Positions 7,719-51,717 are shown, numbered from the stretch's first letter. The stretch is 58,903 bases of DNA from an uncultured Gammaproteobacteria bacterium (GCA_964477485.1 CAYZEE010000001.1:1-58903); one strand, 5' to 3'. Numbers and translations are program-made. Notes: generated from the letters alone by a model not told the origin.

Positions 7719-7721
7719 AAG

Positions 7722-8597: not shown

Positions 8598-8599
8598 TT

Positions 8600-31828: not shown

Positions 31829-31867
31829 TTAGCCTCATATAATTAGATTTTACGATCTCAAAAGAGG

Positions 31868-31873
31868 TATAAT
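31868..31873 (+). promoter_or_regulatory. TATAAT box 7 nt upstream of murE ATG (possible internal leaderless promoter)
   Basis: ggTATAAT aaagatt ATG. The -35 is poor. Confidence 0.3.
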
Positions 31874-31880
31874 AAAGATT

Positions 31881-33089: not shown

Positions 33090-33103
33090 TTAGAAAATAG
33101 CAA

Positions 33104-34516: not shown

Positions 34517-35826
34517 ACGGGGGTAAAAAATTAAAAGGAGAAGTTTCGGTTTCGGGGTCTAAGAATGTTGCTCTTAAGGCGCTGGTAGCAGCGTGTTTAA
34601 CTGGAGAACCAGTGATTATTGAAAATATTCCTCTGATTTCAGACTTTATGACAATGGTGGAGATTATTAGAGAACTGGGGGGCACTGTAAGAATATATGA
34701 TCATAAGGCGACTGTCGTGGCCGAAAATATAAAGAACACTCAGATTCCTTTGGATAAAGCCGCAAGCGTTCGGACATCAGCGATGTTTTTATCTCCTCTT
34801 TTGGCTCGTAAAGGAAGGGCAATTATCCCAAATCCCGGAGGATGCAGGATTGGCGCACGTCCTATTGACAGGATAGTTTCAGGTCTTAGAAAAATGGGAA
34901 TTAGAGTGAATTACAACAGCAGAGATGGATTTTTCCATATGGATACAAGCGGGATTAAGGGAACTACCTATAGATTCAATAAAAATACTCATACAGGCAC
35001 TGAGACTTTAATCTTAACCGCAGTTTTGGCTCACGGAAGAACTATTCTTGAAAATGCGGCGGCGGAACCCGAAGTGGATGATTTGATAAATTTCCTGAAC
35101 TTAATGGGAGCTAGGGTTAAACGTGGTTCTATGCGTACTATAGTTATCAACGGAGTTTCTAAGCTCCACGGCGCGACATTTAAGATACCGCCTGATAGAA
35201 ATGAAATTGTTACGCTGGCTGTTGCAGCAGTTGTAACAAAAGGAAATATTTTAATAAAAGACATAACAGAAAAAGGGATAGAAGAATTTCTAGAGATGCT
35301 TAACGCCTGTGGAGGAGGATTTAAAAAAGAGAAAAACGGAATCAGATTTTTTTACAAAACTCCTCTTTACGCAACCAGCATTACAACGTCTTTTTATCCT
35401 GGTTTTATGACAGACTGGCAGGGACCCTGGGCTGTTATTGCGACCACTGCTAAGGGTATTTCTGTCATTCATGAAACAGTTTACGAAAATAGGTTTTCAT
35501 ATGTCGAGGAGCTTATAAAAATGGGTGCTAAAATAAAACTGTTTAATCCTAAAATAGATAGTCCTGAAAAAGTTTATAATTTTAATTACCAGGACAATAA
35601 ACCGGAATACAAACATGCTGTCAGAATATATGGTCCTGTCAAACTTCATAATGCGGTTCTGGCAATTTCGGATCTTCGCGCAGGAGCAACGCTCGTTCTT
35701 GCAGCTCTTGTGTCGGATGGAGAAAGCACAATATTTGGCATAGAGCACTTAGATAGGGGCTATGAAAAGTTTGAGAAGAGATTAGAAAAATTAGGGGCAT
35801 CTATAGTAAGAAAGAACGAGGAATAA
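34498..35826 (+). CDS. murA: UDP-N-acetylglucosamine 1-carboxyvinyltransferase
   Basis: SGSKNVALKALVAACL, the active-site loop PGGCRIGARPID (Cys present) and DLRAGATLVLAAL. Confidence 0.92.
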   Translation: MEKFIINGGKKLKGEVSVSGSKNVALKALVAACLTGEPVIIENIPLISDFMTMVEIIRELGGTVRIYDHKATVVAENIKNTQIPLDKAASVRTSAMFLSPLLARKGRAIIPNPGGCRIGARPIDRIVSGLRKMGIRVNYNSRDGFFHMDTSGIKGTTYRFNKNTHTGTETLILTAVLAHGRTILENAAAEPEVDDLINFLNLMGARVKRGSMRTIVINGVSKLHGATFKIPPDRNEIVTLAVAAVVTKGNILIKDITEKGIEEFLEMLNACGGGFKKEKNGIRFFYKTPLYATSITTSFYPGFMTDWQGPWAVIATTAKGISVIHETVYENRFSYVEELIKMGAKIKLFNPKIDSPEKVYNFNYQDNKPEYKHAVRIYGPVKLHNAVLAISDLRAGATLVLAALVSDGESTIFGIEHLDRGYEKFEKRLEKLGASIVRKNEE

Positions 35827-35827
35827 T

Positions 35828-37081
35828 ATGCAGGTAGTTATTTTAGCAGCCGGCAAGTCAAGCCGCTTTCAACCATATTCCAATTTTGGACACAAATCCC
35901 TTATAACTATTTTGAGCAAGCCTATCATTCAACACAGCGTAGAATCTATAAAGAAGGCTGGTATTTCGGATTTAATAGTAGTAGTTTCAGAAAACTCTAT
36001 GATAAAGAATGTTTTGGGCGATGGTAAAAATCTTGGTGTAAAAATTAGATACGTGATACAAAAAGAACCCAGCGGAGGAGGAAATGGTCTTCTTCTTTCA
36101 AAAAATTACATAAAAGGAGATTTTTTCCTTCTGAATGCATCCCGCGTTGATTTCTTGGAATATAAGAATCTTATGATGAGTAAAAAGACCTTAAAGGATA
36201 AGGGGGTTCTTCTGGCAAAAAGAGAAAAGAACCTGGATAAATTCGGAGCACTGAAGATTTCTAAAGATAAGGTAATCGATATTATAGAAAAACCACAAAA
36301 AGGTGAAGAGCCATCGGATCTGAGATTGGTTGGTATTTATTTATTCTCAAAAGAGTTCTTTAAAATACTTGGGAAAACTCCGGACGGTCATTACAGACTA
36401 GAGGAGGCAATTTCATCATTTGTAAAGAGACAGAGCGTAAGGTTTGTTAAAACAAAGGAAGATGTGCCGTCTCTTAAATATTCATGGGATTTGCTGGATG
36501 TTAAAAATTATTTACTTGGGAAAATAAAAAAATCTATAGGAAAAAATGTTGTTATTGCAAAGAGCGCGGAGATTATAGGAGATGTGGAAATTCAGGACGG
36601 AGCAAATATTATGGAGGGAGCGAAAATAAAAGGCCCGTGTTTTATCGGGAAAAATTCAGTTGTTGGCAATAATGCGATTCTGCGGGGCGGAGTTGATATT
36701 GAAGAAAACTCTCTAATCGGAGCAAATATGGAAGTGAAAAATAGTCTGATAATGAAAGGTGCAAAGACGCATTCCGGTTTTATTGGAGATTCTGTTGTCG
36801 GCGAGGATTCTCGCATCGGTGCTGACTTCTCAACCGCCAATGTAAGACTTGATAGAAAAAATATTGCGTCAGTTGTTAAAGGTATTAAGGTGGATACAGA
36901 CTTAAGTCATTTTGGGGCAGTTATTGGCAGCAATGTTCATATCGGGATAAAGTCCTCTACTATGCCGGGAATAATCATAGGACAAAACGCAACCATTGGC
37001 CCATCCACCGTAGTTCTTAATAATGTTGAGGCCAACGCTAAATACTATACAAAGTTTCAGGAAATAATTATTAAGAAATGA
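35828..37081 (+). CDS. Bifunctional sugar-1-phosphate nucleotidyltransferase / LbH acetyltransferase (GlmU-like)
   Basis: N-terminal VILAAGKSSRF nucleotidyltransferase fold and a C-terminal hexapeptide-repeat domain (IGKNSVVGNNAILRGGVDIEENSLIGANMEVKNS..). Context is next to murA. Confidence 0.7.
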   Translation: MQVVILAAGKSSRFQPYSNFGHKSLITILSKPIIQHSVESIKKAGISDLIVVVSENSMIKNVLGDGKNLGVKIRYVIQKEPSGGGNGLLLSKNYIKGDFFLLNASRVDFLEYKNLMMSKKTLKDKGVLLAKREKNLDKFGALKISKDKVIDIIEKPQKGEEPSDLRLVGIYLFSKEFFKILGKTPDGHYRLEEAISSFVKRQSVRFVKTKEDVPSLKYSWDLLDVKNYLLGKIKKSIGKNVVIAKSAEIIGDVEIQDGANIMEGAKIKGPCFIGKNSVVGNNAILRGGVDIEENSLIGANMEVKNSLIMKGAKTHSGFIGDSVVGEDSRIGADFSTANVRLDRKNIASVVKGIKVDTDLSHFGAVIGSNVHIGIKSSTMPGIIIGQNATIGPSTVVLNNVEANAKYYTKFQEIIIKK

Positions 37082-37554
37082 CCAAGAATAAAATTGTCCT
37101 TTTTGACATCGACTACACACTTTTCGACACAGGTGCATTCAAAGGAAGCAATCTGAAGGTTTATAAGCTTTATAAAGAAACAAGAAGCGTATTGAGAAAG
37201 CTAAGTGAGGCTGCAGAGATTGGTATCTTTTCCAAAGGAGAGGATGAATTTCAGAGGAAAAAACTTAAGCAAACTTTAATTGATGGGCATTTTCAGGAAA
37301 AAAACATACATATTTTTCTTGATAAAAGCGACAATATAGAGAAGGTTTTAGAAAAGTACAAAGGTTGGATTATTTTCCTGGCTGATGATAGATTGGATGT
37401 TCTTTATCAGGCTAAGCATTTTGATAATTCTGTTGTCACGATTTGGGTAAAAAGAGGTCCATTTGCGGAGAAAAAAAATGAAAAAAATGATTTTACGCCT
37501 GATTTCGGAGTTTTAAATCTTGAAGAAATTGTCCCGATAGTCCGTGATTCATAG
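37078..37554 (+). CDS. HAD-superfamily hydrolase (small)
   Basis: Motif I VLFDIDYTLFDT, with later K and DD (LADD) motifs. Confidence 0.65.
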   Translation: MTKNKIVLFDIDYTLFDTGAFKGSNLKVYKLYKETRSVLRKLSEAAEIGIFSKGEDEFQRKKLKQTLIDGHFQEKNIHIFLDKSDNIEKVLEKYKGWIIFLADDRLDVLYQAKHFDNSVVTIWVKRGPFAEKKNEKNDFTPDFGVLNLEEIVPIVRDS

Positions 37555-37560
37555 TCAGAT

Positions 37561-37590
37561 TTGACAAATAATAAGTTTTAATGATAAAAA
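37561..37590 (+). promoter_or_regulatory. Promoter TTGACA-18 nt-TAAAAA, 7 nt upstream of ATG 37598 (leaderless-type)
   Basis: TTGACA at 37561-37566 and tgaTAAAAA at 37582-37590, followed by tatacaa and then ATG. Confidence 0.4.
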
Positions 37591-37597
37591 TATACAA

Positions 37598-38998
37598 ATG
37601 AGAAAGTATCTTATACTGCTTCTAATACTTGCTTTCTTCTCAATTTTTCTAGGAAGCGCTAAGGCGTTTTCGCTCCAAACAGATAGAATAATAATAAAAT
37701 TTCATTCAAAAACGCCATCTTATGTTCAGGAAGACTCAATAAAAAACCTCGGTATTACAAAAAAAGAAAAGTTAAAACTTTCTGATACCTTCTCTCTTAC
37801 GGTTCCAAAAGGCAAGGCTCGAGATTTTATTAATAAATTTTCGAAAAACAAAAATATTGAATACGCGGAAGAAGATCATATTGCAAAAGCGCAGGAAATA
37901 CCAAATGATCCATATTTTCCAAACCAGTGGGGACTTTCAATAATTCAGGCGCCCTCCGCATGGAATATAACACATGGCTCATCAAATGTGGACATAGCAA
38001 TAGTTGATACGGGAATTGACGGAGTTCATTCGGATTTATCATCAAAAATCGTCGCGTCCGCAGATTGTACAATTTCCATAAACTGCGTTGATACGGCGTC
38101 TGTTGATGATAACGGTCATGGAACTCATGTTGCGGGGATTGCGGCAGCAGAGACTAATAATGGCATCGGAATTGCAGGAACCGGCTATAACTCAAGTCTT
38201 ATGTCTGTAAAAGTTCTTGATAGTTCAGGGAGCGGTTATTATTCGTGGGTCGCAAATGGTATAGTCTGGGCAGCAGATCATGGCGCGCGTGTAATAAATC
38301 TAAGTCTCGGCGGGCCATATCCATCTTCTACGTTATCAAATGCTGTTTCGTATGCATGGAATAAGGGCGCGGTTGTTGTCGCAGCAGCAGGAAACAACGG
38401 CAGTACCTCTCCTCTTTATCCTGCATATTATCCACAAGTTCTTTCGGTTGCCGCGACAGATCGGAATGATAATATAGCCTGGTTTTCAAATTATGGTTAT
38501 TGGGTAAAAGTGGCAGCTCCCGGAGTTGACATATTTTCTACTTATAATAACGGAGGTTATGCAATTTTATCGGGAACCTCAATGGCGACTCCTTTTGTTT
38601 CAGGAGTTGCGGGGCTTGTCTTTGCCGATCATCCAAGCTGGACGAACACACAAGTCAGAAACAAGATTGAATCCTCAGCAGACCGAATTTTTGGGACCGG
38701 TTTTTACTGGCAGTATGGGAGAGTAGATGCATGTGGCGCTGTTGATTGCAACACGTCAATAAGTCCAACACCGACTCCGACTCCTACTCCAGCTCCATCT
38801 CCTACTCCAACCCCAACTCCGACACCGACGCCTTCTCCGAGTCCTTCTCCAACATTAACTCCTACTCCAACCCCGACGTCAGTTCCATCTCCGACATCTA
38901 CGCCAACTCCTACTCCAGGCGGCCCGCCGATTCCTCCTCCGCCGCCTCCGCCGCCAACTCCCTGGTGGTGCACCATCTGGCCATTCTTGTGCAAATAG
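37598..38998 (+). CDS. Secreted subtilisin-family (S8) serine protease with I9-like propeptide, long Pro/Thr/Ser linker and short Trp/Cys-rich tail
   Basis: Signal peptide present. Catalytic triad blocks [19 protein letters not shown] and [12 protein letters not shown]. The C-terminus is [14 protein letters not shown]...[26 protein letters not shown]. Confidence 0.9.
38766..38962. repeat. Low-complexity Pro/Thr/Ser-coding region (imperfect ACNCCN repeats) ending in a poly-Pro run
   Basis: Read directly. It also creates the spurious G/V-rich antisense ORF at 38704..39033. Confidence 0.85.
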
Positions 38999-39043
38999 CT
39001 TCTTGACAGGCAGGTATATAATAGTATGGCCAAAGCTTAGCTT

Positions 39044-39557: not shown

Positions 39558-41045
39558 TTATTTCTTTACAAATACCCCCGAATATTTGTCACTCCATACC
39601 ATGTTCCACTTTTTCTCTTTTACCAGCTTAATAAGTCTTCTATAAACCGGTTTATCATATGACATATAAGCCGCATCATAACCTGTTTTATTGATGTCCG
39701 TTTGGTTTTGCTCAATTGCATAATACCGGTCAAACCCGCTGTAGCCCTTTTGGTCTCTCCATAAGTGCATTCTTCCGTCAATAGTCGGTTTTATCCTGGG
39801 GTAATTCCAGATAAGCCACCCGCCCCAATTATAAAGTGTAAAAAGTTTTTTCTTCTCTACATTATTTTTTAGAATAAAATTTGCTGCTTTTCCCGAACAG
39901 TAATAATGACTGCAAAATTTATTCCAGGAAAAATTATAATAACTTGATAAAGGAAGTTTAAAATAGAAAATCGGAATACCTATAAGAAGAAAAATTATGG
40001 TCCCCGATACATACTGATGTTTTTTCTTATTAGGTTCAAGGAAATGCGCAAGAGGTTTTAAAAGAGGAATAGATAAATAATACATCATCCAGGCATATCT
40101 TCGGACAAAAACAGAAAAAACAAGGGTTACCAGGAATACTGAAATTTCAGGAGCTCTTTTTATAATTTTATTTTCGGCAAATAAAATAACTGTACCCCAG
40201 AAAGCAAGAACCGAAACCAGGATAAGATTCCACCATGAAGTTGATAAATCATTAAAAGGCAGATACTCGGCAATTAGTTTTAAATCTGGACTTACGTGAT
40301 TTAGAACATCTTGATAGATTCTAATACCGTATGGATTGACTAAGGTAAAACTTGCTGAGACAAAAAATACAATCCCTAAGAGTCTTTTCTCCGAAAGTAC
40401 CTCCTTTAATTTAATTTTCAACATAAAATAATTATTCAAGAGTTTTACAGCAGCCCACCCGAAGAAAAGCAATAGCCCTAGTAAAAATTCTCCATTAGTA
40501 TTTGCCCATAGTAAAAATAAAAACGGAAGAAAGTAAATTGCTTTTTTATTCTCCCGATAGATACTAAGTATATAAAATAGTATGCCAAGAAATAGAAGGC
40601 TCAATAATTGGCCGCGGAAGGAAATTGAGTTTACTGGATCCATAAAATAAATCACAAGAGGAAAGATTAAGGATTGTTCAAAGAAGGAAAGTTTGGCGGC
40701 TTTTGAGAAAAAATAAAAAGTAAGAGTTATTACCAGCGCTCCAAGAATAACAACGCCCAGAAATCCAAAATTATGATACGCAAAATATGAAATTAGATCG
40801 GTAAACCATGAAGTATTTGCCCATTTATAACCGGGCATTAACTGGGAGAAAGTGTTGGTGCGAAGAAGCTTGCCATGTTGGAAAAAATACTGTCCGTATT
40901 TTAGATGCCAGCCGAAATCCGGATCTGTCGGAACATATAAAGATGCAATGAAAACAAAAATATAAGGAATAAATTCCAGCATGAGGCAAAGTATAACAAT
41001 ATTTTCGGGTATTGACAAGGAATTTAGCCCTGTGATATAGTCCAT
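39558..41045 (-). CDS. Polytopic (about 12 TM) GT-C-like membrane protein
   Basis: First external loop carries an acidic motif (VPTDPDFGWHLKYG). Many TM segments and a C-terminal soluble domain. No named family recognised with certainty. Confidence 0.55.
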   Translation of the reverse strand: MDYITGLNSLSIPENIVILCLMLEFIPYIFVFIASLYVPTDPDFGWHLKYGQYFFQHGKLLRTNTFSQLMPGYKWANTSWFTDLISYFAYHNFGFLGVVILGALVITLTFYFFSKAAKLSFFEQSLIFPLVIYFMDPVNSISFRGQLLSLLFLGILFYILSIYRENKKAIYFLPFLFLLWANTNGEFLLGLLLFFGWAAVKLLNNYFMLKIKLKEVLSEKRLLGIVFFVSASFTLVNPYGIRIYQDVLNHVSPDLKLIAEYLPFNDLSTSWWNLILVSVLAFWGTVILFAENKIIKRAPEISVFLVTLVFSVFVRRYAWMMYYLSIPLLKPLAHFLEPNKKKHQYVSGTIIFLLIGIPIFYFKLPLSSYYNFSWNKFCSHYYCSGKAANFILKNNVEKKKLFTLYNWGGWLIWNYPRIKPTIDGRMHLWRDQKGYSGFDRYYAIEQNQTDINKTGYDAAYMSYDKPVYRRLIKLVKEKKWNMVWSDKYSGVFVKK

Positions 41046-41080: not shown

Positions 41081-41719
41081 ATGGAAGAGAATATTAGTCC
41101 TAACGAAACCAGACCCAGTAGAATAAGACAGTTATATAGAGGAAATTCTCCGACAAAATTTTTGAGCAAAAAATATCTCCCGGCTTTTGTTCTTATAGTA
41201 ATTGTAATTATAGTTATCCTCATAGGAGTTAAAGTAATTTCAGGATCTTCTTCATCTTCGGACAATCAGAATCCGCAAAATGTCCAAATTGAAAAACCAT
41301 TAGCAACTGCAAATATAAATAAAACATTTGAGTTCCCTATTAAAAACGATAAAGGAAATGTGGTTGGAAAACTTACTTATGTTGCGCAGACAGGGGAACT
41401 TGACAGGCAAGTTATAATACAGGGCAAAGTTGCAACGGCAATTACAGGGAGAATGTTTCTTGTGCTAAATCTTAAGCTTGTAAACAATCAGGATAAGGGC
41501 GTAACGATTAACACGAGAGATTATGTACGCCTTTCGGTTAACGGAGACACAAAGGAGATGCTTGCCCCTTCAATTTATAATGATCCTGTAAGTGTCCAGC
41601 CGATTTCGACGCAATTTGCCAGGCTTGGTTTTGCTGTAAATACAACCGATAAAAACTTTATGCTTCAGGTTGGAGAGATTGACGGTAAGAAAGAAATGAT
41701 CAAGCTTAATTTTAAATAA
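41081..41719 (+). CDS. Membrane-anchored exported beta-sandwich-like protein (DUF4352-like?)
   Basis: N-terminal TM segment, an S-rich linker, then ..GRMFLVLNLKLVNNQDKGVTINTRDYVRLSVNGD.., resembling DUF4352-type domains. Confidence 0.5.
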   Translation: MEENISPNETRPSRIRQLYRGNSPTKFLSKKYLPAFVLIVIVIIVILIGVKVISGSSSSSDNQNPQNVQIEKPLATANINKTFEFPIKNDKGNVVGKLTYVAQTGELDRQVIIQGKVATAITGRMFLVLNLKLVNNQDKGVTINTRDYVRLSVNGDTKEMLAPSIYNDPVSVQPISTQFARLGFAVNTTDKNFMLQVGEIDGKKEMIKLNFK

Positions 41720-41721
41720 AA

Positions 41722-41967
41722 ATGGTGCAATCTCAAAAAGATAAAGCTGCAATACTAAGCGAAATACAAAAAGCTCTGGACGATATGATTTTTGGAAGTG
41801 TCGAGCTTTATGTGCAAAACAGCAAAGTTACCCAGATAACAGTAAGACACATTAAAAAAACCAGTATGCCTACAAAGTATGAAAACGAAAAGTTAGAAAT
41901 CGGTAAGAATGCAAAGAAACTATTGACAAACAAAAAAAATGCCAATATACTTGCTAATATAGATTAA
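41722..41967 (+). CDS. YezD-like small protein (DUF2292-like)
   Basis: ILSEIQKALDDMIFGSVELYVQNSKVTQITVRHIKKT matches the YezD pattern (..GSVxIxVqdgkVvqIe..). Confidence 0.55.
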   Translation: MVQSQKDKAAILSEIQKALDDMIFGSVELYVQNSKVTQITVRHIKKTSMPTKYENEKLEIGKNAKKLLTNKKNANILANID

Positions 41968-42149
41968 CTTAGTAGGATAAGCTGACCGCAAACGGAGGCT
42001 TTTTCACCCAACCCAGAGAGAAATCGAAGGGTCGGATGAAGGAGTCTCCGTTTTTGGTTCAAAACAAAAACCGAGAGCAGGAAGTGCAATCCGCCCCGAG
42101 TTTATCGAGGGGAGAAAGGAAATATACAAAGGGAGGAGGTGAAATATAA

Positions 42150-43418
42150 ATGAATGCAAAAAAAAGAATAGCAGTAGCAATTGCAACCGGAGCGCTTTTA
42201 CTTAACGCATTTGCACCACTGGCTTTTGCAGATACATCTATTGTTATTTCTGGCAATGGTAGTAATTCAAACAACACAACAAATGTTGTTACATCTACCA
42301 ATACGACAGTTCAACAAAGTAATTCGGCAAATGTCACAAATAATGTGACATCCAATGCAACAACAGGTGGAAATGACGCAAGTGCAAACACCGGAGGAAA
42401 CGTAACAGTCTCAACCGGCAATGCCAACAATAACACAACTGTTTCAACAGCTGTTAATGCAAATCAGGCGCAGGTATCAGGCTGCGGAACTTGCAACGGC
42501 GGCAACACAAGCGTTACGGTTTCCGGAAACGGCTCGGATTCAAATAACCAGGCGAACTTAACTACCGGGAATGAAACAAATGTAGTTCAAGGTAACCAGG
42601 CAAACGTTAAAAACAACGTTAATGCGAGTTCAAATACCGGAAGTAACGATGCGAGCGCAAACACCGGAGGAGACGTAACTGTTAGAACCGGAAGCGCCTC
42701 GTCTAATGCAAATGTTTCTACAACCGCAAATGCCAATGTGGCGCAGGTTGGAGGAAATGGCGGCTCTGGTTCACTTAGCCTTGTAATTTTAGGTAACGGG
42801 ACAGAGAGTCAGAACAGCATTGGTTTGTCAAGCGACAATTCAGTTTTGCTTTGGCAAGGTAATTCGGCAGTAGTCACGAATAACGTTAATGCTAATGCAA
42901 AGACTGGAAATAACGACGCGAGCGCAAATACCGGAGGAAACGTAACAGTCTCAACCGGCAATGCCGACGCAGGTGTTAATGTTGACAATATGGTCAACTT
43001 TAACTCTGCAGAAGCCGGATGCGGCTGCGATGTAACTGTTTTGGCAAAAGTTGCGGGAAATGGAGAGGACACCCAAAATAATATTTATGCCGACTTAGGC
43101 AATAGCTTGGGAGTCTTCCAGGATGTTGGGGAAGGCATGGGCGCTGAGAACATGGCCCTACTTACCAATAACGCCAATGCCACTTCAGGAACCGGAGGAA
43201 ACAACGCAGGTGCAAACACTGGACTCGTTTCAGGTGATGCTGTTTATGAGCAAACCGGAAACGCAACCAACAGCACAAACGTTGACAACTCAGGAAACGT
43301 AAACGTATTCGGTTCGGTTCTTCCTTTGCCAATGCCATTCAGCAATCTTAGCTTTTCAGCTAATTTTTCAGCTGTTTGGGCGGCATGGGGTGCTTTTTTA
43401 AGCAATATAGGAGCCTAA
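42150..43418 (+). CDS. Secreted Asn/Gly/Thr-rich repeat protein A (4 modules, no anchor)
   Basis: Strong SD (GGGAGGAGGTGA). Signal peptide ..LNAFAPLAFA/DTS. Four 86-94-aa modules and a hydrophobic/aromatic uncharged tail (LPLPMPFSNLSFSANFSAVWAAWGAFLSNIGA). Confidence 0.85.
   Translation: MNAKKRIAVAIATGALLLNAFAPLAFADTSIVISGNGSNSNNTTNVVTSTNTTVQQSNSANVTNNVTSNATTGGNDASANTGGNVTVSTGNANNNTTVSTAVNANQAQVSGCGTCNGGNTSVTVSGNGSDSNNQANLTTGNETNVVQGNQANVKNNVNASSNTGSNDASANTGGDVTVRTGSASSNANVSTTANANVAQVGGNGGSGSLSLVILGNGTESQNSIGLSSDNSVLLWQGNSAVVTNNVNANAKTGNNDASANTGGNVTVSTGNADAGVNVDNMVNFNSAEAGCGCDVTVLAKVAGNGEDTQNNIYADLGNSLGVFQDVGEGMGAENMALLTNNANATSGTGGNNAGANTGLVSGDAVYEQTGNATNSTNVDNSGNVNVFGSVLPLPMPFSNLSFSANFSAVWAAWGAFLSNIGA
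42231..43313. repeat. Four tandem ~86-94-codon modules (boundaries ~42231, 42513, 42780, 43038)
   Basis: Protein-level repeat: [IV]x[IV]xGNGxxSxN..QxNxAxVxNNVxAxxxTGxNDASANTGGxVTVxTGxA... At DNA level, a perfect 35-nt copy (ccggaggaaacgtaacagtctcaaccggcaatgcc) occurs at 42391-42425 and 42931-42965. Confidence 0.9.
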
Positions 43419-43479
43419 GTTCCTATGTAGTGTAGGGCAGTTTCGGCTGCACTTCATCGAAACGCCCTACACACGGAAC
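43419..43479 (+). promoter_or_regulatory. Long interrupted stem-loop (5+9+6 bp) starting at the first nt after the stop codon of protein A; no U-tract
   Basis: Paired segments are gttcc/ggaac (43419-43423 with 43475-43479), gtgtagggc/gccctacac (43430-43438 with 43464-43472) and gtttcg/cgaaac (43440-43445 with 43458-43463). The loop is 12 nt. Confidence 0.6.
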
Positions 43480-43546: not shown

Positions 43547-45784
43547 ATGATAACAAAAATTAAAAAAACAATTTCGATATTCACAATCGTAGCGCTTTTG
43601 CTGGTGCAAACTGGTCCTGCGTTTGCCGACAGCTTGCCTATTCCGCCGGCTCCGCCGACTGCTCCAACAGCGCCACCGCCTCCTGCGACAACTACCACTC
43701 CACCTCCTGCTCCGACAGCGCCGCCTGCGCCAACAGCGCCTCCTCCTGCTCCGACAGCGCCGCCTGCGCCAACAGCGCCACCGGTACAGACAACTACGGT
43801 TACTCCGACTCCAACTCCAACAGTTGATCCGGTTTCTACCAGTCAGGGAACTACTACCGGGTCAAATAATTCATCAGGAGGTTCAGGCTCAGGTAATCAG
43901 ACAGGTCAGACTGAAAATGGACAAACAGGAAATACCACTATTAACACCGGGAATACAACAAATACAGGTACTGTAACGACTAACGCAAATAATAATAGCA
44001 GCAGTTCATCGGGTTCAAACGGTACAGACCCTTCGGCTACCAATACCGGTAACGGTTCAAATTCTTCCAATAACAGCTCATCAGCAACAACGACAAATAA
44101 TAATTCATCGCAAAATAACAGCGCGACAGTTAATAACGGTTTGAGCATGACCACAACAACAGGACAAAATTCTGCATCGGAAAATGTCGGAAACTCTACC
44201 ATTAAGACAGGGGACGCAAATACATCGGGTACTGCCATAACCGGCGTTAATACAAATCTTAACGGAGTTTCTGTTTCGGAGTTTAATGTTGCGGATAATC
44301 ATGTCGGAGATATTACTTTGGATTTTCCTACAAATTGTATTTCAGGATGCGGGGGCACAAGCACATCAGCGCAAAATATCAATAACGGTTCCGGCTCAAC
44401 CAATAATGCAAGCGCGTCCGGAACCACAAATAATAGTTCTTTCCAGAATAATGATGCAAATGTCGGAAGCAATCTTACTCTTTCTTCCGACTCGGGTAAT
44501 AACGCGACTTCTAAAAATACATCAGGAGATTCTACAATTTCAACCGGCAATGCAAATGTTGATGCAAATTCTCTTACTTTTGCCAATAATAATTTAGACG
44601 GAAATGTAATCTTGGGAGTTGTAAATATATACGGAAATCTTCAGGGAGACATAATACTTCCGCAAAGTTCCATAGATAGCGCATGCGGCAATAACTGTTC
44701 GGCGGGATCAACAACATCTGCTTCGAACTCAAATAACGGCGCAGATTCCAATAACCTGGCCAATGCAAATAGTTCGACAAATAACCAGACAGCGCAAAAC
44801 AATAATGCGACTATTGACAATAATCTTTTGCTTGCGGCAGCAACGGGCAATAATCAAACAAACGGAAACACCAGTGGCAACTCAACGGTTCAAACAGGTT
44901 CATCAAATATTGACGCCAAGACCATAAATGTTGCCAACTCAAATGTAAACGGTGGGAATGTGTGGCTTGTTATTGTAAATAAAGCAGGGCAATGGATTGG
45001 GCAGATTTTAGGTGCGCCGCAAGGCAGCGATTTTGCAGGTTCATCCGGTACGGAATTTACGGTTTCCCCATCCGGTGAAATAACAGCGACAAACGGCGGA
45101 AACGGTTCAGGCTCAACAAACAATTCAAATGTTTCAAATACGACCAATAATACAACAGTCCAGAATAACAATGCCAAGATTGTAAATAATTTAAATCTCT
45201 CTGCAAATACCGGAGGAAACAACGCAAGCGACAATACAGGAGGAAATTCAACGATAGCAACAGGAAATGCAAATGTAATCGCAGATCTTATAAATTTTGT
45301 AAATAACAATATTTCAGGCAATGGGAAATTAATTGTTACAGTAGTTAATGTTTTCGGAAGCTGGTTCGGAGACTTTGTAGGGCCGGGAATGCATAAAGAT
45401 AAAAATACTAATAGTCAGTCCGGGAGCGTAGCGTCATTGTCTCAATCTCCGTCCAGTAGCGGAGGCTCGCAAAACTCTTCGAACAGCTCAAGTTCCAATT
45501 CATCATTAGGACAAAGTAGTTTAAATACAATTACAACTACCGCAATCGCAGTTGGAGGAACAGGCCAAATTTTGGCAGGCTCAATCCAGAACTCAAATGT
45601 TGCTCTTGTCGCCGGCGCAAATACCAATACCCCGAGTTTTAAAAGCATAGAATCAGCAAATGTTAAAAAGATAAATTTAAATCTTGCCTGGATAATTATT
45701 CTAGGCCCAATTTTATTCGCGGCTTACATAATAAGCAAAAGATATTTATCTAAATTTCTGCCCCGAAAGGCGACTTATGATTAA
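43547..45784 (+). CDS. Repeat protein B: signal peptide, PAPTAPP linker, N/S/T-rich region, 4 extended modules, C-terminal TM anchor
   Basis: Signal peptide ..VQTGPAFA/DS. Ends with ..LAWIIILGPILFAAYIISKRYLSKFLPRKATYD. The ORF track begins at TTG 43532; ATG 43547 is preferred. Confidence 0.8.
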   Translation: MITKIKKTISIFTIVALLLVQTGPAFADSLPIPPAPPTAPTAPPPPATTTTPPPAPTAPPAPTAPPPAPTAPPAPTAPPVQTTTVTPTPTPTVDPVSTSQGTTTGSNNSSGGSGSGNQTGQTENGQTGNTTINTGNTTNTGTVTTNANNNSSSSSGSNGTDPSATNTGNGSNSSNNSSSATTTNNNSSQNNSATVNNGLSMTTTTGQNSASENVGNSTIKTGDANTSGTAITGVNTNLNGVSVSEFNVADNHVGDITLDFPTNCISGCGGTSTSAQNINNGSGSTNNASASGTTNNSSFQNNDANVGSNLTLSSDSGNNATSKNTSGDSTISTGNANVDANSLTFANNNLDGNVILGVVNIYGNLQGDIILPQSSIDSACGNNCSAGSTTSASNSNNGADSNNLANANSSTNNQTAQNNNATIDNNLLLAAATGNNQTNGNTSGNSTVQTGSSNIDAKTINVANSNVNGGNVWLVIVNKAGQWIGQILGAPQGSDFAGSSGTEFTVSPSGEITATNGGNGSGSTNNSNVSNTTNNTTVQNNNAKIVNNLNLSANTGGNNASDNTGGNSTIATGNANVIADLINFVNNNISGNGKLIVTVVNVFGSWFGDFVGPGMHKDKNTNSQSGSVASLSQSPSSSGGSQNSSNSSSSNSSLGQSSLNTITTTAIAVGGTGQILAGSIQNSNVALVAGANTNTPSFKSIESANVKKINLNLAWIIILGPILFAAYIISKRYLSKFLPRKATYD
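43706..43779. repeat. 39-nt direct duplication encoding PAPTAPPAPTAPP
   Basis: cctgctccgacagcgccgcctgcgccaacagcgcc occurs at 43706-43740 and again at 43745-43779. Confidence 0.9.
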
Positions 45785-46934
45785 AAAGATTTTTGGGCCT
45801 ACAATTTTTGTTATTCTGCTTGGCGTGCTTTTATCTGCTACAGCAAAAGCAGATCAGACTGTGATCTCAATAACAGGGAATGGGAATTCTTCTCAAAATA
45901 CAACACAGGTAAATGTAAATACCTCAACAACAGTTCAACAATCAAACAACGCAAAAGTTGAAAATAATGTTACCAATACTTCAAATACGGGGAATAACCA
46001 GGCCTCATCGAATTCAGGCTCCTCAACTGTTACCACAGGATCTGTTACCAGCAACTCAAATGTAAATAATCAAAATATTAATTCGAACACAACAGATAAC
46101 AAAGAATGCGGATGCGCAAATAATATCACAACACAAATAACAGGAAACGGGACAAATTCAAATAACAATGTAAATTTAAATATTTCAAATACCACAAATG
46201 ATTCCCAGGGCAATAATGCAAATATTGCAAACAACATTGATAATCATGCAAATACCGGAGACAACAGCGCAAATAACAATCGTGGAAATGCCCAGATAAA
46301 TACGGGAAGCATTACAGATATAGTTGATATCAATAATAAAAATATAAATCAAAACGTGGACCCTCAAGAGGATAATTCAGGTTCATTAACCGTTAAAATC
46401 AAAGGCAATGGAGACGATTCAAATAACAATGCAACAATTGATTTATCCAATATTTTTAATTACAAAAGCAAAAACATTGCCGTACTCTTGAATACAGATA
46501 CCGAGGATCCAAATACCGGCGGCAATACAGCTGACGGCAATATCGGCGGTGTTCTGATTACAACCGGAAGTATTACAAAAATCACGACCATAGGAAATGA
46601 AAACATAAATGGGTCATCTTTTAATCCGCCAACTCAAATAGTTCCTTCTCCGGGAGGCGGCGGTCTGCCTCCGGGAGGTTCGCCGCCAGGCGAACAAGTC
46701 CCGCCGGTAAGTAGTCAGTCTTCATCTTCAGGAGGAGGTTCCTCATCCGGAGGAAGCGGAAGTTCTGTGGGAGGCCCGGGGCAAGTATTGGCAGCAGCCG
46801 TAGGAGCAGTCCTGCCGGCAACAGGAAGTTTTTGGATATTGCCGATAATGCTTCTGTCTATTACAATGTTTTTTGCGGGATGGTATCTGCGCTTTGGTTC
46901 TGATCTGTCCCCGCCAGCATATGCAACTATCTAG
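45777..46934 (+). CDS. Repeat protein C: signal peptide, 3 modules, P/G/S linker, LPATG cell-wall sorting signal
   Basis: Signal peptide ..LLSATAKA/DQT. C-terminus is ..AVLPATG + SFWILPIMLLSITMFFAGWYL + RFGSD... Overlaps B by 8 nt (ATGATTAA). Confidence 0.85.
   Translation: MIKKIFGPTIFVILLGVLLSATAKADQTVISITGNGNSSQNTTQVNVNTSTTVQQSNNAKVENNVTNTSNTGNNQASSNSGSSTVTTGSVTSNSNVNNQNINSNTTDNKECGCANNITTQITGNGTNSNNNVNLNISNTTNDSQGNNANIANNIDNHANTGDNSANNNRGNAQINTGSITDIVDINNKNINQNVDPQEDNSGSLTVKIKGNGDDSNNNATIDLSNIFNYKSKNIAVLLNTDTEDPNTGGNTADGNIGGVLITTGSITKITTIGNENINGSSFNPPTQIVPSPGGGGLPPGGSPPGEQVPPVSSQSSSSGGGSSSGGSGSSVGGPGQVLAAAVGAVLPATGSFWILPIMLLSITMFFAGWYLRFGSDLSPPAYATI
46812..46826 (+). other. LPXTG sortase recognition motif (LPATG)
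   Basis: Codons ctg ccg gca aca gga, followed by a 21-aa hydrophobic stretch and an Arg. Confidence 0.8.
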
Positions 46935-47472
46935 GAAGTTTTTTGGAAACGCCTTAATGGCGTTTTCTCTTTTTTTAATTATTTTTATATATTACCCGAT
47001 AATAGTTTTTTATCTTTTTCCAAATCAACAGAACATTAATCCGTCAAATACGGCGTTTTATATAGAAATTCCGAAAATAAATATAAAAACTCCAATTATT
47101 CCCGGTGTTGATCCGTTTAACGAAAAAAAATATAGACAGGCTCTTGAAAAAGGCGTTGCCCAGGCAAAGGGAACAGCTCTTCCGGGAGAGAAGGGAACTA
47201 TTTTCCTTTTTGCCCATTCATCTGATTTGCCCTGGAGGATTACAAGATACAACATCGCGTTTGTCAGACTGCCCGAGCTTAAAAAAGGCGATCTAATAAT
47301 AATTGTCAGAAACGGGAAAAAGTATAAATATAAAGTAAACGATGAGAAAACCGTCTGGCCAGATCAAGTTAATTATCTTCTTAATACAAAGAAAACCCAA
47401 TTAATTCTTCAAACCTGCGTACCAATCGGAACATCTTTCCAAAGACTACTCGTCTTTGCCGGTCCTCAATAA
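46921..47472 (+). CDS. Sortase-family transpeptidase
   Basis: N-terminal TM segment. IEIPKINIKTPIIPGV, LPGEKGTIFLFAHS (catalytic His), LILQTCVP (TLXTC-type Cys) and a downstream Arg (FQRLLVFA). ATG 46921 overlaps the end of protein C by 14 nt; the ORF-track TTG 46873 is less likely. Confidence 0.85.
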   Translation: MQLSRKFFGNALMAFSLFLIIFIYYPIIVFYLFPNQQNINPSNTAFYIEIPKINIKTPIIPGVDPFNEKKYRQALEKGVAQAKGTALPGEKGTIFLFAHSSDLPWRITRYNIAFVRLPELKKGDLIIIVRNGKKYKYKVNDEKTVWPDQVNYLLNTKKTQLILQTCVPIGTSFQRLLVFAGPQ

Positions 47473-47504
47473 AAAAAAGCCCCGCATTTCTGTAGGGCTT
47501 TTTT
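47473..47504. terminator. Bidirectional intrinsic terminator between the convergent sortase and protein D genes
   Basis: AAAAAAGCCC-12 nt-GGGCTTTTTT. The short GC stem is extended by A:T pairs, with an A-run on one side and a T-run on the other. Confidence 0.6.
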
Positions 47505-48513: not shown

Positions 48514-49527
48514 ATGGCACAATTGATGGGGTTTATGCTTCTGTCGTCGTTTATAACATTTATTCTTCTTGTCCCCTTCATAGACTTTCTTTACAAGATG
48601 AAATTCAGACGCCAGAAACAGAAGACGCTGGATATGTTCGGCCAGCCCACTCCTAATTTTGACAGACTTCATTCATGGAAAACCGGTACTCCTTTTGGCG
48701 GAGGAGCTCTGGTTATTGTTCTTGTTTCAATTTTGACTTTATGGGCATACGGAATGTTTGGTATTGCTATTAAACCCTGGGAGGCTTTTACAATAATTTT
48801 TGCGTTTATCAGTTTTGGAATTTTGGGATTTTATGATGATTTGAAAAAACTTGTCAATAACGGCAAGAAATTCGCTTTTTTCGGATTGCGATTTAGATAT
48901 AAATTTCTTATTCAGTGGATTTTGGCTTTTATCATAGCGATAGTTCTGTACGCTCAACTTGGCTATTCTTTTATCTTCATACGGGGATTTGGACTTGCAA
49001 GTTTAGGGTTTTTATACATACCGTTTGCGGCTTTTGTTATAGTTTCATTTACAAATGCTTTTAATATTGCAGATGGTCTAGACGGGCTTGCTCCGGGGCT
49101 TCTTCTTATTTGTCTGGGAGCATTTCTTGCGCTTTCTGCGAACAGCGTTGATCAAACTTTAACGATTTTTACAGCGGTTCTTATGGGTAGTGTTGCCTCA
49201 TTTCTGTATTTCAATATTTATAAAGCCAGAATTTGGGCAGGGGATGTCGGCGCATTATCGCTTGGAGCGGCGCTTGCTGTTATCGGGCTTTTGACAGGCA
49301 AAATTATTGCCCTTGTTTTTATAGGCGGAGTTTTTGTTATTGAAGTCGGTTCATCTCTTATTCAAATTCTCGGCAGGAGATTTTTGGGCAAAAAAATTCT
49401 TCCTTGCTCTCCCTTTCATTTATATCTTCAAAAAATCGGCTGGGATGAGCCAAAAATCGTGATGCGCGCATGGCTTTTGGGATTTTTCTTTGCTATTCTG
49501 GGACTTTACATAGCCTTCATCAGGTAA
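48514..49527 (+). CDS. mraY: Phospho-N-acetylmuramoyl-pentapeptide transferase
   Basis: KTGTPFGGG, NAFNIADGLDGLA and 10 TM segments. Confidence 0.92.
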   Translation: MAQLMGFMLLSSFITFILLVPFIDFLYKMKFRRQKQKTLDMFGQPTPNFDRLHSWKTGTPFGGGALVIVLVSILTLWAYGMFGIAIKPWEAFTIIFAFISFGILGFYDDLKKLVNNGKKFAFFGLRFRYKFLIQWILAFIIAIVLYAQLGYSFIFIRGFGLASLGFLYIPFAAFVIVSFTNAFNIADGLDGLAPGLLLICLGAFLALSANSVDQTLTIFTAVLMGSVASFLYFNIYKARIWAGDVGALSLGAALAVIGLLTGKIIALVFIGGVFVIEVGSSLIQILGRRFLGKKILPCSPFHLYLQKIGWDEPKIVMRAWLLGFFFAILGLYIAFIR

Positions 49528-49540
49528 GTTATTCAAAGAC

Positions 49541-50614
49541 ATGAAAAGAATAGACATAATTCTTCTTCTATCTGTTGTATCTCTGACACTTTTTGGACTT
49601 TTTATGATATATGACGCGTCTTCTTTTGTTGCTTTTAGGGATTTTGGAGATAAGTACCATTATATAAAAAGCCAGGCTTTTTGGGTTGCATTCGGTTTTT
49701 TATTTATGACATTTTTCTCTTTTTTTTCCTACCGCAAGCTCTATAACCTATCTCTCCCAATTCTCATCGTTGCTCTTGTCCTTCTGTTCTCTGTTTTTCT
49801 TCCCGGTATCGGGGTTTACCTTCTTGGTGCGCACAGATGGATAAATTTGCGGTTTTTTCTTCTTCAGCCTGCTGAATTCGTAAAACTTGCACTTGCTATC
49901 TATCTTGCTTCCTGGTTGTCAACAAAAGAGAAAGGAAGATTTCTGGCATTTCTGCTTCTTCTATTTCTGGTCGTAGTCCTCGTAATTCTTGAGCCAGACA
50001 TGGGAACAGCTATGATTATATTGACGGAGGCTATAGTTGTTTATTTTCTTTCCGGCGGAAATATTTCTTATTTTTTGGCATTATTGCCGGCAGTTTTCGT
50101 AATAGGAGTAGCTCTTATAAAAATATCTCCCTATAGGGCAAAAAGACTTGAAACATTTTTTAATTTTAATCAATCAGTTCAAACCTCTTCTTACCACGTG
50201 CGTCAAATATTAATTGCCCTGGGATCAGGCGGTATATTTGGCGTAGGACTTTCGAATTCTTTGCAAAAATATGCGTATCTGCCCGAAACAACAACTGATT
50301 CTATTTTTGCCATAATTGCGGAAGAACTGGGTTTTGTTGGGGCGGTTGTTCTTATAGCAATATTTGCAGTTGTTGTCTGGCGGGGATTTTATATCGCTAT
50401 AAATGCAAAAGATAATTTTGGCAGACTTTTAGCAGGAGGAATTACTACGTTTTTGGCAGTCCAAATGATTATCAATTTAGCATCCCAGACAGTTCTGTTG
50501 CCCTTAACTGGTATTCCGTTGCCATTTATTTCTTATGGAGGGTCAGCTCTAATTATAGATCTTTGTGCCGTTGGTATTCTTCTTAATATTTCAAAACAAA
50601 GTGCAAAATTATGA
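49541..50614 (+). CDS. ftsW: SEDS-family peptidoglycan polymerase FtsW/RodA
   Basis: Polytopic, with LQPAEFVKLALAIYLA, EPDMGTAMI, PETTTDSIFAIIAEELGF and PLPFISYGGSA motifs. Confidence 0.9.
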   Translation: MKRIDIILLLSVVSLTLFGLFMIYDASSFVAFRDFGDKYHYIKSQAFWVAFGFLFMTFFSFFSYRKLYNLSLPILIVALVLLFSVFLPGIGVYLLGAHRWINLRFFLLQPAEFVKLALAIYLASWLSTKEKGRFLAFLLLLFLVVVLVILEPDMGTAMIILTEAIVVYFLSGGNISYFLALLPAVFVIGVALIKISPYRAKRLETFFNFNQSVQTSSYHVRQILIALGSGGIFGVGLSNSLQKYAYLPETTTDSIFAIIAEELGFVGAVVLIAIFAVVVWRGFYIAINAKDNFGRLLAGGITTFLAVQMIINLASQTVLLPLTGIPLPFISYGGSALIIDLCAVGILLNISKQSAKL

Positions 50615-51717
50615 GAGTTGTAGTTATTGGAGGACACCTATCCCCTGCATTATCTGTAATAGAAGCTCTTCCCAAGGGTTATGAGGTATTGTTTATAGGA
50701 AGAAAGTATATCTTTGAGGGGGACAAGACTTTATCGTTAGAATACCAAACCGTAAACAGTCTCGGCATTGCCTTTGCGTCTTTGTCAACAGGAAGACTTC
50801 AGAGAAAGTTTACAAAACATACAATTCCGTCTCTTTTTAAATTGCCTGGAGGGTGTCTTGAGGCCGTATCTATTCTTCACAGATTCAAACCGGATGTAGT
50901 TTTAGGTTTTGGAGGCTATCTTGAAATCCCCGTTGTACTGGCAGCTTATATTTTGCGAATTCCTGCTGTAATCCATGAACAGACTCAGGAAGCCGGTCTT
51001 GCAAACAAAATTTGTTCTCATTTTGCCAAAAAAATCTGTATCTCATGGGAGATCTCACGCAAGTTTTTCCCTGAATACAAAACTGTTTTAACAGGAAACC
51101 CAATACATGAATTCAAAGTTCAAAATTCAAAGTTCAAAATTCAAGAGAACGAATTACCGTTAATATATATTACCGGCGGAAGTTCGGGTTCCCATTCCAT
51201 AAATGTTTTAGCTGAGGGTTGTATAAAGCAATTATTAAAACATTTCAAAATTATTCATCAGACAGGAGATGCTAAAGAATTTAATGATTTCAAGAGACTT
51301 TCGTCTCTCCGGGAAAAATTTTCGCAGGAAGAAAAAGAAAAATATATTATTAAAAAATTTATTTCGCCCTCCGATGTTCTGGAAGTTTTAAAAACCGCCG
51401 ATTTGATAATCGGCAGAGCCGGAATAAATACGGTTACAGAACTTTTATATGCAGGAAAGCCCTGCGTTTTAATTCCTCTTCCATTTTCGCAGAATAAAGA
51501 GCAGTTGAAGAACGCGAAGCTTTTAAAGAAAGTGGGGCTGGCTGAGATATTAGAACAAAAATCGGCAACATCCGATAAGCTCCTCCGGCTTATTAAAAAG
51601 ATAACAGAGAATTTGGAAAATTATAAAAAAAAGGGAAAGTTGGCAAGAGCGCTTGTTGATGTAAATGCAGCAGATAAAATTATAAAAGTATTGGAAGATG
51701 AAAAAAAGAATCTCTAG
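50611..51717 (+). CDS. murG: UDP-GlcNAc:lipid I N-acetylglucosaminyltransferase MurG
   Basis: GGHLSPALSV (G-loop), IHEQT, TGGSSGSHSIN and GRAGINTVTELLYAGKPCVLIPLP motifs. A heptamer array lies at the interdomain linker. Confidence 0.9.
   Translation: MRVVVIGGHLSPALSVIEALPKGYEVLFIGRKYIFEGDKTLSLEYQTVNSLGIAFASLSTGRLQRKFTKHTIPSLFKLPGGCLEAVSILHRFKPDVVLGFGGYLEIPVVLAAYILRIPAVIHEQTQEAGLANKICSHFAKKICISWEISRKFFPEYKTVLTGNPIHEFKVQNSKFKIQENELPLIYITGGSSGSHSINVLAEGCIKQLLKHFKIIHQTGDAKEFNDFKRLSSLREKFSQEEKEKYIIKKFISPSDVLEVLKTADLIIGRAGINTVTELLYAGKPCVLIPLPFSQNKEQLKNAKLLKKVGLAEILEQKSATSDKLLRLIKKITENLENYKKKGKLARALVDVNAADKIIKVLEDEKKNL
51112..51145. repeat. Heptanucleotide tandem repeat TTCAAAR x4.9 (equivalently AAARTTC), in frame inside murG
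   Basis: Read directly: ttcaaag ttcaaaa ttcaaag ttcaaaa ttcaag. Encodes FKVQNSKFKIQE between TGNPIHE and LPLIYITGG. Confidence 0.95.

Follow-up and report, generated by a model that had tools for sequence, protein, structure and literature searches.

A Microgenomates gene cassette in which one of several exported paralogues carries an LPXTG signal beside its candidate sortase

We analysed a 58,903-nucleotide (nt) stretch of DNA deposited under the name of an uncultured Gammaproteobacteria bacterium (GCA_964477485.1 CAYZEE010000001.1:1-58903; referred to below as the window, with positions counted from its first letter), which contains four paralogous genes for exported proteins, A to D, and a sortase gene. 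Only one of the four products, C, ends in an LPXTG cell-wall sorting signal, and its gene directly precedes that of the sortase. As judged from sequence, the sortase is very likely an anchoring enzyme dedicated to C, and we consider it probable that C is a conventional sortase substrate that would be anchored to the wall by this enzyme and tether a non-covalent assembly of its paralogues. The LPXTG sorting chemistry itself is ordinary; what is new is the unannotated, lineage-wide paralogue cassette that it serves, of which we found no description in the literature.

The sorting signal of C and its conservation

The genes of the cassette and the parts of C are as follows.

41081–41719, plus strand: X, which opens the cassette and encodes a protein with an N-terminal transmembrane (TM) segment; its extracytoplasmic domain is rich in beta structure and weakly DUF4352-like
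41722–41967, plus strand: DUF2292 (YezD-like) small protein, a kept member of the cassette (Pfam DUF2292, 35.2 bits against a cut-off of 22)
42150–43418, plus strand: A, secreted paralogue with four repeats and no anchor
43547–45784, plus strand: B, membrane-anchored paralogue
45777–46934, plus strand: C, LPATG paralogue of 385 amino acids
45777–45851, plus strand: predicted signal peptide of C, MIKKIFGPTIFVILLGVLLSATAKA, read from the sequence
45870–46610, plus strand: three ~74-residue all-beta repeats of C (residues 32–104, 120–193 and 207–278; hidden Markov model (HMM) domains), with CxC in the first linker
46620–46811, plus strand: Pro/Gly/Ser-rich spacer of C, read from the sequence, with a predicted local distance difference test score (pLDDT) below 50
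46812–46934, plus strand: cell-wall sorting signal of C, from LPATG to the stop codon
46921–47472, plus strand: sortase, 183 amino acids
47531–48130, minus strand: D, small secreted paralogue of 199 amino acids with two repeats and no anchor; a frequent but non-obligatory neighbour

An earlier note, made from the sequence alone, had described the position of C, its LPATG motif, hydrophobic helix and basic residue, and its overlaps with both adjoining genes; all of these were confirmed from the open reading frame map and the sequence. The LPATG motif (residues 346–350, nt 46812–46826) comes after ..GAV and is followed by a 21-residue hydrophobic helix, SFWILPIMLLSITMFFAGWYL (nt 46827–46889), then by R372 (46890–46892) and the tail FGSDLSPPAYATI, which runs to a TAG stop at 46932–46934. 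Everything past the membrane helix, RFGSDLSPPAYATI, forms an unusually long tail of 14 residues (46890–46931) that is conserved as LR[FL]xSGxSP, and this conservation holds also in clades in which the genes do not overlap. Across 60 orthologues, L346, P347, T349, G350, G368, L371, R372 and P379 were invariant. C is the only protein with a true sorting signal in the window, the other LPxTG motif near a C-terminus being located inside the polytopic protein FtsW. Homologues of C numbered 136 at E ≤ 1e-3; among the 120 listed, about 90 end in LPxTG, a helix and the conserved tail YLR[FL]xSGxSP, and most of the others are A-like and signal-less.

The four paralogues were delimited with a repeat HMM that was seeded with one repeat of A and iterated over A to D. 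It recognised a ~74-residue, Asn/Thr/Gly-rich repeat in four copies each in A and B, three in C and two in D, and no further members of the family were found with it in the window. The repeats of C contain invariant G/N/T columns. All four proteins contain 16–19% Asn and much Thr, Ser and Gly, with few aromatic residues; none matched a Pfam or NCBIfam family at E ≤ 0.1 or a Protein Data Bank (PDB) sequence. A has a conserved C-terminal tail (..NxGNxNxxG..P..FDLxxLxxxL) and belongs to a family with 1584 library representatives at E ≤ 1e-3, and a search for homologues of D returned three proteins only. B, which likely starts at ATG 43547 rather than at TTG 43532, consists of a signal peptide, a Pro-rich N-terminal region, four repeats with extra hydrophobic inserts, a Ser-rich spacer and a C-terminal anchor composed of INLAW, a TM segment and basic residues.

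Other features of these proteins were also apparent. N-x-S/T sequons are abundant, with 23 in A, 44 in B, 13 in C and 5 in D. The linkers between repeats hold recurrent paired Cys (CxC, CC or CGxC), which in C appear as ECGCAN at 46107–46115, in A at residues ~111–116 and ~293–296, and in D at residues 113–116; C111 of C is conserved in at least 90% of sequences. These pairs in C, A and D may form disulfides or bind metal. Genomes of the candidate phyla radiation are reportedly enriched in MdbA-like oxidoreductases (PMC6744442).

Conservation of the arrangement was examined in two sets of loci. When eight diverse C orthologues were inspected in their contigs, all eight contigs had the same gene order: a TM protein of ~200–280 amino acids, a DUF2292 protein, A (~400–445), B (~710–800), C (~370–435) and the sortase. 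Searching contigs with the single sortase protein brought up three close relatives and an unrelated sortase from Bacilli; 80 more loci came from scanning metagenomes with an alignment of sortases, and duplicates were then removed. Anchors were assigned with a strict classifier, which replaced a permissive first version that had taken chance motifs before the TM segment of B as signals and had missed TM anchors of B.

In all 36 complete non-redundant cassettes, A had no anchor, B had a C-terminal TM anchor and C had a sorting signal (35 according to the classifier, plus one flagged case that proved by hand to hold an ordinary B anchor). Likewise, each of the 57 non-redundant genes directly upstream of a sortase gene encoded a sorting signal: LPATG in 30, LPVTG in 15, LPITG in 4, LPSTG and LPISG in 2 each, and LPMTG, LPETG, LPTTG and GLSDTS in 1 each. 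One of the two LPISG signals had been called 'LAAAA' by the classifier and was reread by hand. No locus without a C gene was found among those with at least ~600 nt of sequence upstream of the sortase. LPxTG was absent from the last 80 residues of 147 of 148 A-family representatives, and the single regular-expression match was unlike a sorting signal. The rule that the earlier note had put up for checking, one LPXTG member per locus, thus holds for both sets of counts, and we encountered no cassette with a sorting signal on all of its paralogues or on none.

All 29 loci with sufficient upstream DNA had X upstream of A, and 28 of the 29 had the DUF2292 gene there; a D-like gene on the minus strand lay within 2.5 kb downstream in 27 of 42 loci. 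By these counts, the core cassette comprises six genes, X-DUF2292-A-B-C-sortase, with D as a frequent companion. Lineages whose sortases are only 45–55% identical agree in gene order, repeat number and anchor type. The pattern recurs in every related cassette examined and is not a product of chance.

The sortase and its pairing with C

The enzyme encoded downstream of C matched Pfam Sortase (PF04203) at 84.7 bits (cut-off, 26.6) over model positions 1–123 of 125, and NCBIfam TIGR01076 (sortase_fam) at 67 bits (cut-off, 39.35). Its catalytic residues are H99 (FLFAHS, nt 47215), C166 (LILQTC, nt 47416) and R175 (QRLLV, nt 47443), which align with the AH, TC and R of solved class C sortases (best, 7d6p/6ixz at 5e-13; range for class C entries in the PDB, 5e-13 to 3e-10). 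In alignments of 27–33 orthologues, H99 and C166 were invariant and R175 was at least 90% conserved. The His, Cys and Arg of the active site were therefore all in place on alignment, and by these measures the sortase is genuine.

Its class is less conventional. Of the NCBIfam class models, those for C (70.7 bits against a cut-off of 160), D (57–58), E (34), F (24) and GN (23) all scored below their cut-offs, and the class A and B models gave no match. By its model scores, the enzyme fits no curated class from A to F or GN, and lies nearest to classes C and D. It has no lid: only ~14 residues separate the N-terminal TM segment from the first core strand (IEIPKI), and the DPF at residues 64–66 comes after the first strands, within the core alignment, with a match of −0.5 bits to the lid region of Ebp SrtC. 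A C-terminal TM segment is also absent, as the protein stops 8 residues past R175. The N-terminus consists of basic residues followed by a hydrophobic TM segment (residues 13–33; topology read from the sequence), an arrangement kept in all lineages.

The public gene call for the window starts the sortase at the second Met (Met13, 46957), giving a protein of 171 amino acids. ATG 46921 is the better start, and the overlap with C is hence 14 nt, because the basic residues and GNxL motif upstream of Met13 are conserved in all lineages in a 33-orthologue alignment. Many of the calls for orthologues (171–173 amino acids) also begin at the second Met, so that the conserved basic N-terminus is lost from the protein and the overlap with C goes unseen.

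One divergent cassette, at locus L009, is informative about the relationship between enzyme and substrate. In its C protein, LPxTG is replaced by GLSDTS, followed by a helix and Arg, and the adjoining sortase is divergent (LTLYTC), with an E value of 6.8e-8 to the enzyme of the window. Enzyme and substrate vary together here, in an apparent switch of specificity. In this part of L009 (5328–7009), the sortase also lacks the SSDxPWRITRYN insert, and the variant signal G[LI][SG]DT[SDG], with a helix and a basic residue, occurs also in proteins P0091, P0098 and P0115. When ~250 kb of DNA around the first 12 loci was scanned, no other proteins with sorting signals were found. The Chisholmbacteria locus L005 has another sortase gene (16754–17152) about 7 kb further downstream, which means that more than one sortase is present in some relatives.

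A proposed envelope structure and its alternatives

The sorting signal, the active-site residues, the strict adjacency of enzyme and substrate and the single signal per cassette were observed directly. From these we propose that, after Sec export, the C-terminal helix would hold C in the membrane, where the sortase encoded downstream would cut LPATG between Thr and Gly. We infer that the Thr of C would then be joined to a peptidoglycan precursor, placing C in the wall, with the Pro/Gly/Ser-rich spacer probably serving as the wall-spanning segment and the three beta-repeats exposed. The window also encodes peptidoglycan synthesis proteins (a penicillin-binding protein (PBP), Mur ligases, MurA, MraY, FtsW and MurG), in line with wall anchoring. 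The role of the sortase would be dedicated anchoring and not polymerisation, because sortase-driven polymerisation requires that the repeating unit supply the donor signal as well as the acceptor Lys, a combination lacking here. Free A, presumed to be the major and most highly expressed subunit, would bind non-covalently, repeat to repeat, with C and B, as would membrane-held B and the small, free D. Together they would make up a single envelope structure, whether fibre, sheath or S-layer-like coat, with B tethering it in the membrane and C, at a second depth, in the wall. That A, often with D, assembles on B and C in this way is an idea we regard as plausible without thinking it the likelier outcome.

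The division of labour into building block, base and anchor that the earlier note had suggested is thus reflected in a conserved split of anchor types; a fixed hierarchy of amounts is plausible and rests on other signals, described below. The note had also set the cassette apart from classical sortase pili. The departure is real, as one member only carries a signal, but it is not unprecedented, since chaplins show a comparable division (PMC5618241), and nothing shows that the structure is a pilus.

Predicted structures gave limited guidance on the assembly. The AlphaFold2 model of C, built from a 60-sequence alignment, was all-beta (mean pLDDT 64.8; predicted template modelling score (pTM) 0.46), with each repeat built from one short strand, one long hairpin and another two strands. 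Foldseek found nothing significant for it in the PDB: the top match was the amyloid protein FapC (E = 0.09, probability 0.02, TM-score below 0.1), followed by assorted beta-solenoids, none of them significant, and there was no Ig-like pilin among the matches of this moderate model. A profile search with C against the PDB also returned nothing. The model of D, from a D-first alignment padded with C and A orthologues, was poor (pLDDT 50.4). No PDB sequence match was found for X or the DUF2292 protein.

Several observations weigh against the proposed tethered assembly. The cytoplasmic tail of C, with its LRxxSGxSP motif, is atypical for sorting signals in its length and conservation. The scan for other signals covered flanks of ~250 kb, so further substrates of the sortase could be encoded elsewhere in the genomes. 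L005 has its second sortase gene, and D is missing from 15 of 42 loci. The models of C and D are of moderate and poor confidence, respectively, and the predicted fold matches nothing solved. Cleavage of C and its link to peptidoglycan are predicted from sequence features, and the co-assembly of A to D is deduced solely from shared repeats and synteny.

Some of these points would equally suit a different explanation, in which A to D are tandem duplicates that work independently (for instance in adhesion to host cells or polysaccharides) and are distinguished only by their mode of retention, with the sortase as a general anchoring enzyme beside one of several substrates. Interaction between the paralogues is a prediction, D is dispensable, L005 has another sortase gene nearby, and sortase is among the few families noted as near-ubiquitous in Microgenomates, in a paper that names no substrate (PMC6744442). 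We nevertheless consider this explanation unlikely: independent adhesins usually vary in number and order, whereas all 36 cassettes agree in gene order, repeat number and anchor type; the sortase motif varies together with the C signal; no second sorting signal turned up in ~250 kb of flanking DNA; and A has expression signals typical of an abundant structural subunit. A still less favoured alternative is that the signal of C goes unprocessed. C would then remain a membrane protein through its helix, as B does, and the sortase gene would have other targets or a regulatory function. The long tail, with L371, R372 and P379 invariant, could indeed mean a role beyond retention, but the same 60 orthologues show no variation at L, P, T and G of the motif, the sortase has kept its catalytic triad, a signal is encoded directly before the sortase gene in 57 of 57 cases and motif and enzyme co-vary, which together make this explanation highly improbable.

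Between these two in our estimation, and improbable as well, stands a covalent heteropolymer, an unorthodox pilus in which the sortase would link the Thr of C, as the single donor species, to A, B, D or another C through a Lys or the mature N-terminus of the acceptor. Class C pilus sortases are indeed the closest by sequence, with the best class score and the PDB matches given above, and this sortase, like pilus sortases, adjoins a family of paralogues. A also has a moderately conserved Lys, K300 (74%), just ahead of repeat 4, which is its best Lys column but is not invariant. With one donor per chain, however, dimers would be the limit unless C also acted as acceptor, for which mature C offers no Lys column at 60% conservation or above; the single such column of C is located in the signal peptide. 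The only Glu column at that level in mature C is residue 27, beside the predicted signal-peptide cleavage site; no E-box-like Glu was found in the repeats of C, and the YPK pilin motif is absent from A to D. The absence of a pilin-motif Lys and an E-box reported in the earlier note was thereby borne out. Isopeptide polymerisation is argued against because mature C has no conserved Lys and the best in A reaches only 74%, and a pilus-type polymer appears unlikely for C because of its lack of a conserved Lys. The enzyme has neither a lid nor a C-terminal TM segment and scores far under the class C cut-off of 160, and no CnaA/CnaB or other Ig-like pilin fold was recovered by Pfam or by Foldseek with the moderate model of C.

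The proposed tethering of free paralogues by C has its nearest working analogue in the chaplins of Streptomyces, in which long ChpA–C carry a sortase signal, short ChpD–H do not, and class E sortases act. The long members are anchored by sortase, and a role in tethering fibres made of the short, unanchored chaplins is attributed to them (PMC5618241). The likeness, a paralogous secreted family with a sortase signal on a subset only, is one of working and not of family membership, as the chaplin domain (PF03777/DUF320) gave no Pfam match in A to D at E ≤ 0.1. The repeats here are polar, Asn/Thr/Gly-rich and ~74 residues long, in contrast to the ~40-residue hydrophobic domains of chaplins, and the TM-anchored B adds a third mode of retention. 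Moreover, all components including the sortase lie in one fixed cassette, whereas chaplin and srtE genes are dispersed.

Other known systems share parts of this arrangement. Classical sortase pili (SpaA/SpaB/SpaC with SrtC in Corynebacterium; BcpA/BcpB in Bacillus cereus) likewise have related secreted proteins clustered by a class C- or D-like sortase, with one wall-bound member. The cassette differs from them in having the sorting signal on one protein only (36 of 36 cassettes), in lacking the pilin-motif Lys, E-box, sortase lid and C-terminal TM segment, in its class C score below cut-off, and in that no Ig-like pilin fold was detected by Pfam/NCBIfam, by PDB sequence searches or by Foldseek with the pLDDT 64.8 model. 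Dedicated sortase–substrate pairs are known as well, such as SrtB–IsdC, and class D/F and 'marine' sortases have an adjacent cognate substrate. The cassette resembles them in placing a sortase beside a single cognate substrate and, in L009, in matching a variant motif to a variant enzyme; it differs in that the substrate is one of several co-encoded, otherwise signal-less paralogues, the enzyme stands outside the curated classes and the pair is lineage-wide in Microgenomates. TasA/TapA of Bacillus, the curli proteins CsgA/CsgB and Fap each combine an abundant free subunit with a scarcer cell-attached relative. The cassette also has free and attached relatives and, as in those systems, imperfect polar beta-repeats rich in Asn, Gly and Ala, and FapC was the best, non-significant structural neighbour of the C model. 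There is nonetheless no detectable homology (no Pfam match; Foldseek E = 0.09, probability 0.02), and anchoring here would depend on a sortase instead of an outer-membrane nucleator or a non-covalent wall protein.

The Microgenomates sortase gains a single, strictly adjacent and co-varying candidate substrate, which is a member of a lineage-wide paralogue cassette whose products fall into three fixed classes of retention (free, membrane-anchored or wall-anchored). If the proposed tethering by C is correct, the logic of chaplins, in which an anchored paralogue tethers free ones, would extend to an unrelated protein family and another phylum. The cassette is also a concrete, testable candidate for a surface structure of a large uncultivated group that probably relies on cell–cell contact. 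Ultra-small groundwater cells reportedly showed an S-layer and pili-like structures by cryogenic electron microscopy (Luef et al. 2015), and we know of no genes assigned to those structures. A bolder idea, which we put forward tentatively and consider doubtful, is that X-DUF2292-A-B-C-sortase forms the main envelope coat or fibre of Microgenomates, a self-assembling all-beta polymer of a new fold with B as its membrane tether and C, through the dedicated class-unassigned sortase, as its wall tether, and that the subunit ratio is set by a new RNA device on the A message (5′ GAAGUGC and a hairpin, with a 3′ loop, GCACUUC, as its exact complement). The finding would carry more weight should the envelope coat of Microgenomates prove to be a product of this cassette, or the paired RNA motifs at A a regulatory device.

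Gene junctions, RNA elements and genomic setting

The earlier note had regarded C and the sortase as translationally coupled. In the window, the C/sortase overlap of 14 nt, ATGCAACTATCTAG, extends from ATG 46921 to the C stop, and the B/C overlap of 8 nt, ATGATTAA at 45777–45784, contains the ATG of C and the TAA of B (45782–45784). With the sortase starts of relatives placed by the conserved basic/GNxL N-terminus, 20 of 53 non-redundant C–sortase junctions overlapped, 2 had a 2-nt gap, 8 a gap of 11–50 nt and 23 a gap of more than 50 nt. Most overlaps measured 8–17 nt, commonly 11 or 14, and all but that of L072 (17 nt) belonged to the Levybacteria-like clade of the window; the B/C junction ranged from −8 to +90 nt. 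Coupling as a property of the system was thus not upheld: the gene overlap is a local feature of this clade and not the basis of the system.

In two relatives from one clade, L010 and L088, C has lost its stop and reads into the sortase gene in another frame, giving overlaps of 83 and 173 nt (in L010, C at 7410–8714 and the sortase at 8542–9099). Long-tailed variants of C arise in these loci because the stop is lost. Proteins P0073, P0077, P0078, P0081, P0086–P0088 and P0109 are long-tailed forms with conserved tails, ..SLSLSRQADFARR.., and the conservation of such tails probably reflects constraint on the sortase frame.

Three further elements accompany the genes of the cassette.

42081–42149, plus strand: conserved leader of A, made up of GAAGTGC, a small hairpin whose sequence varies, a tract rich in A and the strong Shine–Dalgarno sequence GGGAGGAGGTGA
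43432–43476, plus strand: conserved RNA hairpin just 3′ of the A stop, with loop motif GCACTTC, then an A-rich (not T-rich) tract
47473–47504, unstranded: terminator-like hairpin AAAAAAAAGCCCCGCATTTCTGTAGGGCTTTTTT (−15.2 kcal/mol), bordered by an A-run and a T-run, in the gap that separates the sortase gene from the convergent D gene

A near-consensus Shine–Dalgarno sequence (AAGGGAGGAGGTGA) was found on A alone in most cassettes examined, and those of B, C and the sortase were weak or missing. The 3′ hairpin of A has a predicted energy of −25.3 kcal/mol. A hairpin directly 3′ of the A stop was present in all of the first 12 loci (L001–L012), with the loop GCACUUC in 11 of them, and its stem showed compensatory changes in 11 of 14 pairs. 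Of 19 distinct matches to this motif in 810 kb, 18 fell no more than 40 nt after a gene of the family, on that strand. It is not a canonical terminator, because an A-rich tract comes next and not a U-tract. An expression hierarchy with A strongest is likely, because A has the strong Shine–Dalgarno sequence and conserved flanking RNA hairpins.

The leader of A contains GAAGUG[C/U], the exact reverse complement of the 3′ hairpin loop, with the small variable hairpin directly next to it, and both heptamers were present in 34 of 37 cassettes. The sequences flanking GAAGTGC and GCACTTC did not co-vary as RNA pairing predicts; only the 6–7-nt core was conserved. Pairing between the 5′ and 3′ RNA elements, a shared protein site or a DNA inverted repeat may each account for the heptamer pair. 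No Rfam family was found for either element, and a match to mir-1289 was rejected as chance (27.6 bits against 66).

The window has a G+C content of 37%, and its named relatives are Levybacteria, Daviesbacteria, Chisholmbacteria and the 'Patescibacteria group'. Judged by these relatives, its organism is a member of the Microgenomates (candidate phyla radiation). L001 (record CAYZZF010000001.1), a typical Levybacteria-like cassette, is labelled 'uncultured Gammaproteobacteria', and P0090, a partial family member, is labelled Bacteroidota; both are probably mis-binned or mislabelled metagenome-assembled genome records. In the window, the cassette splits a peptidoglycan and division cluster, with a PBP, two Mur ligases, MurA, a GlmU-like gene and a subtilase at 30143–39000, and MraY, FtsW and MurG at 48514–51717. 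The neighbours in other lineages differ (TsaD, NusA/IF-2, glycosyltransferases, resistance–nodulation–division pumps), so this context is not conserved.

For X, DUF4352 matches, all below threshold, were obtained in 3 of 9 orthologues. Upstream of it, on the minus strand (39558–41045), lies a gene for a 495-amino-acid polytopic membrane protein without a Pfam match and with an early DPDFGW loop, possibly a GT-C-type glycosyltransferase. We rejected it as a glycosyltransferase of the cassette, which it adjoins only in the Levybacteria-like clade. Between the DUF2292 gene and the A leader, a long GC-rich hairpin (41992–42058) is followed by GTTTTTGG, of which GGAGCCTCCGTTTTCG is conserved in relatives; this hairpin could act on the upstream gene pair as a terminator or on A as an attenuator. 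Upstream of the same hairpin, at 41923–41951, is a strong promoter-like site, TTGACA-17-TATACT.

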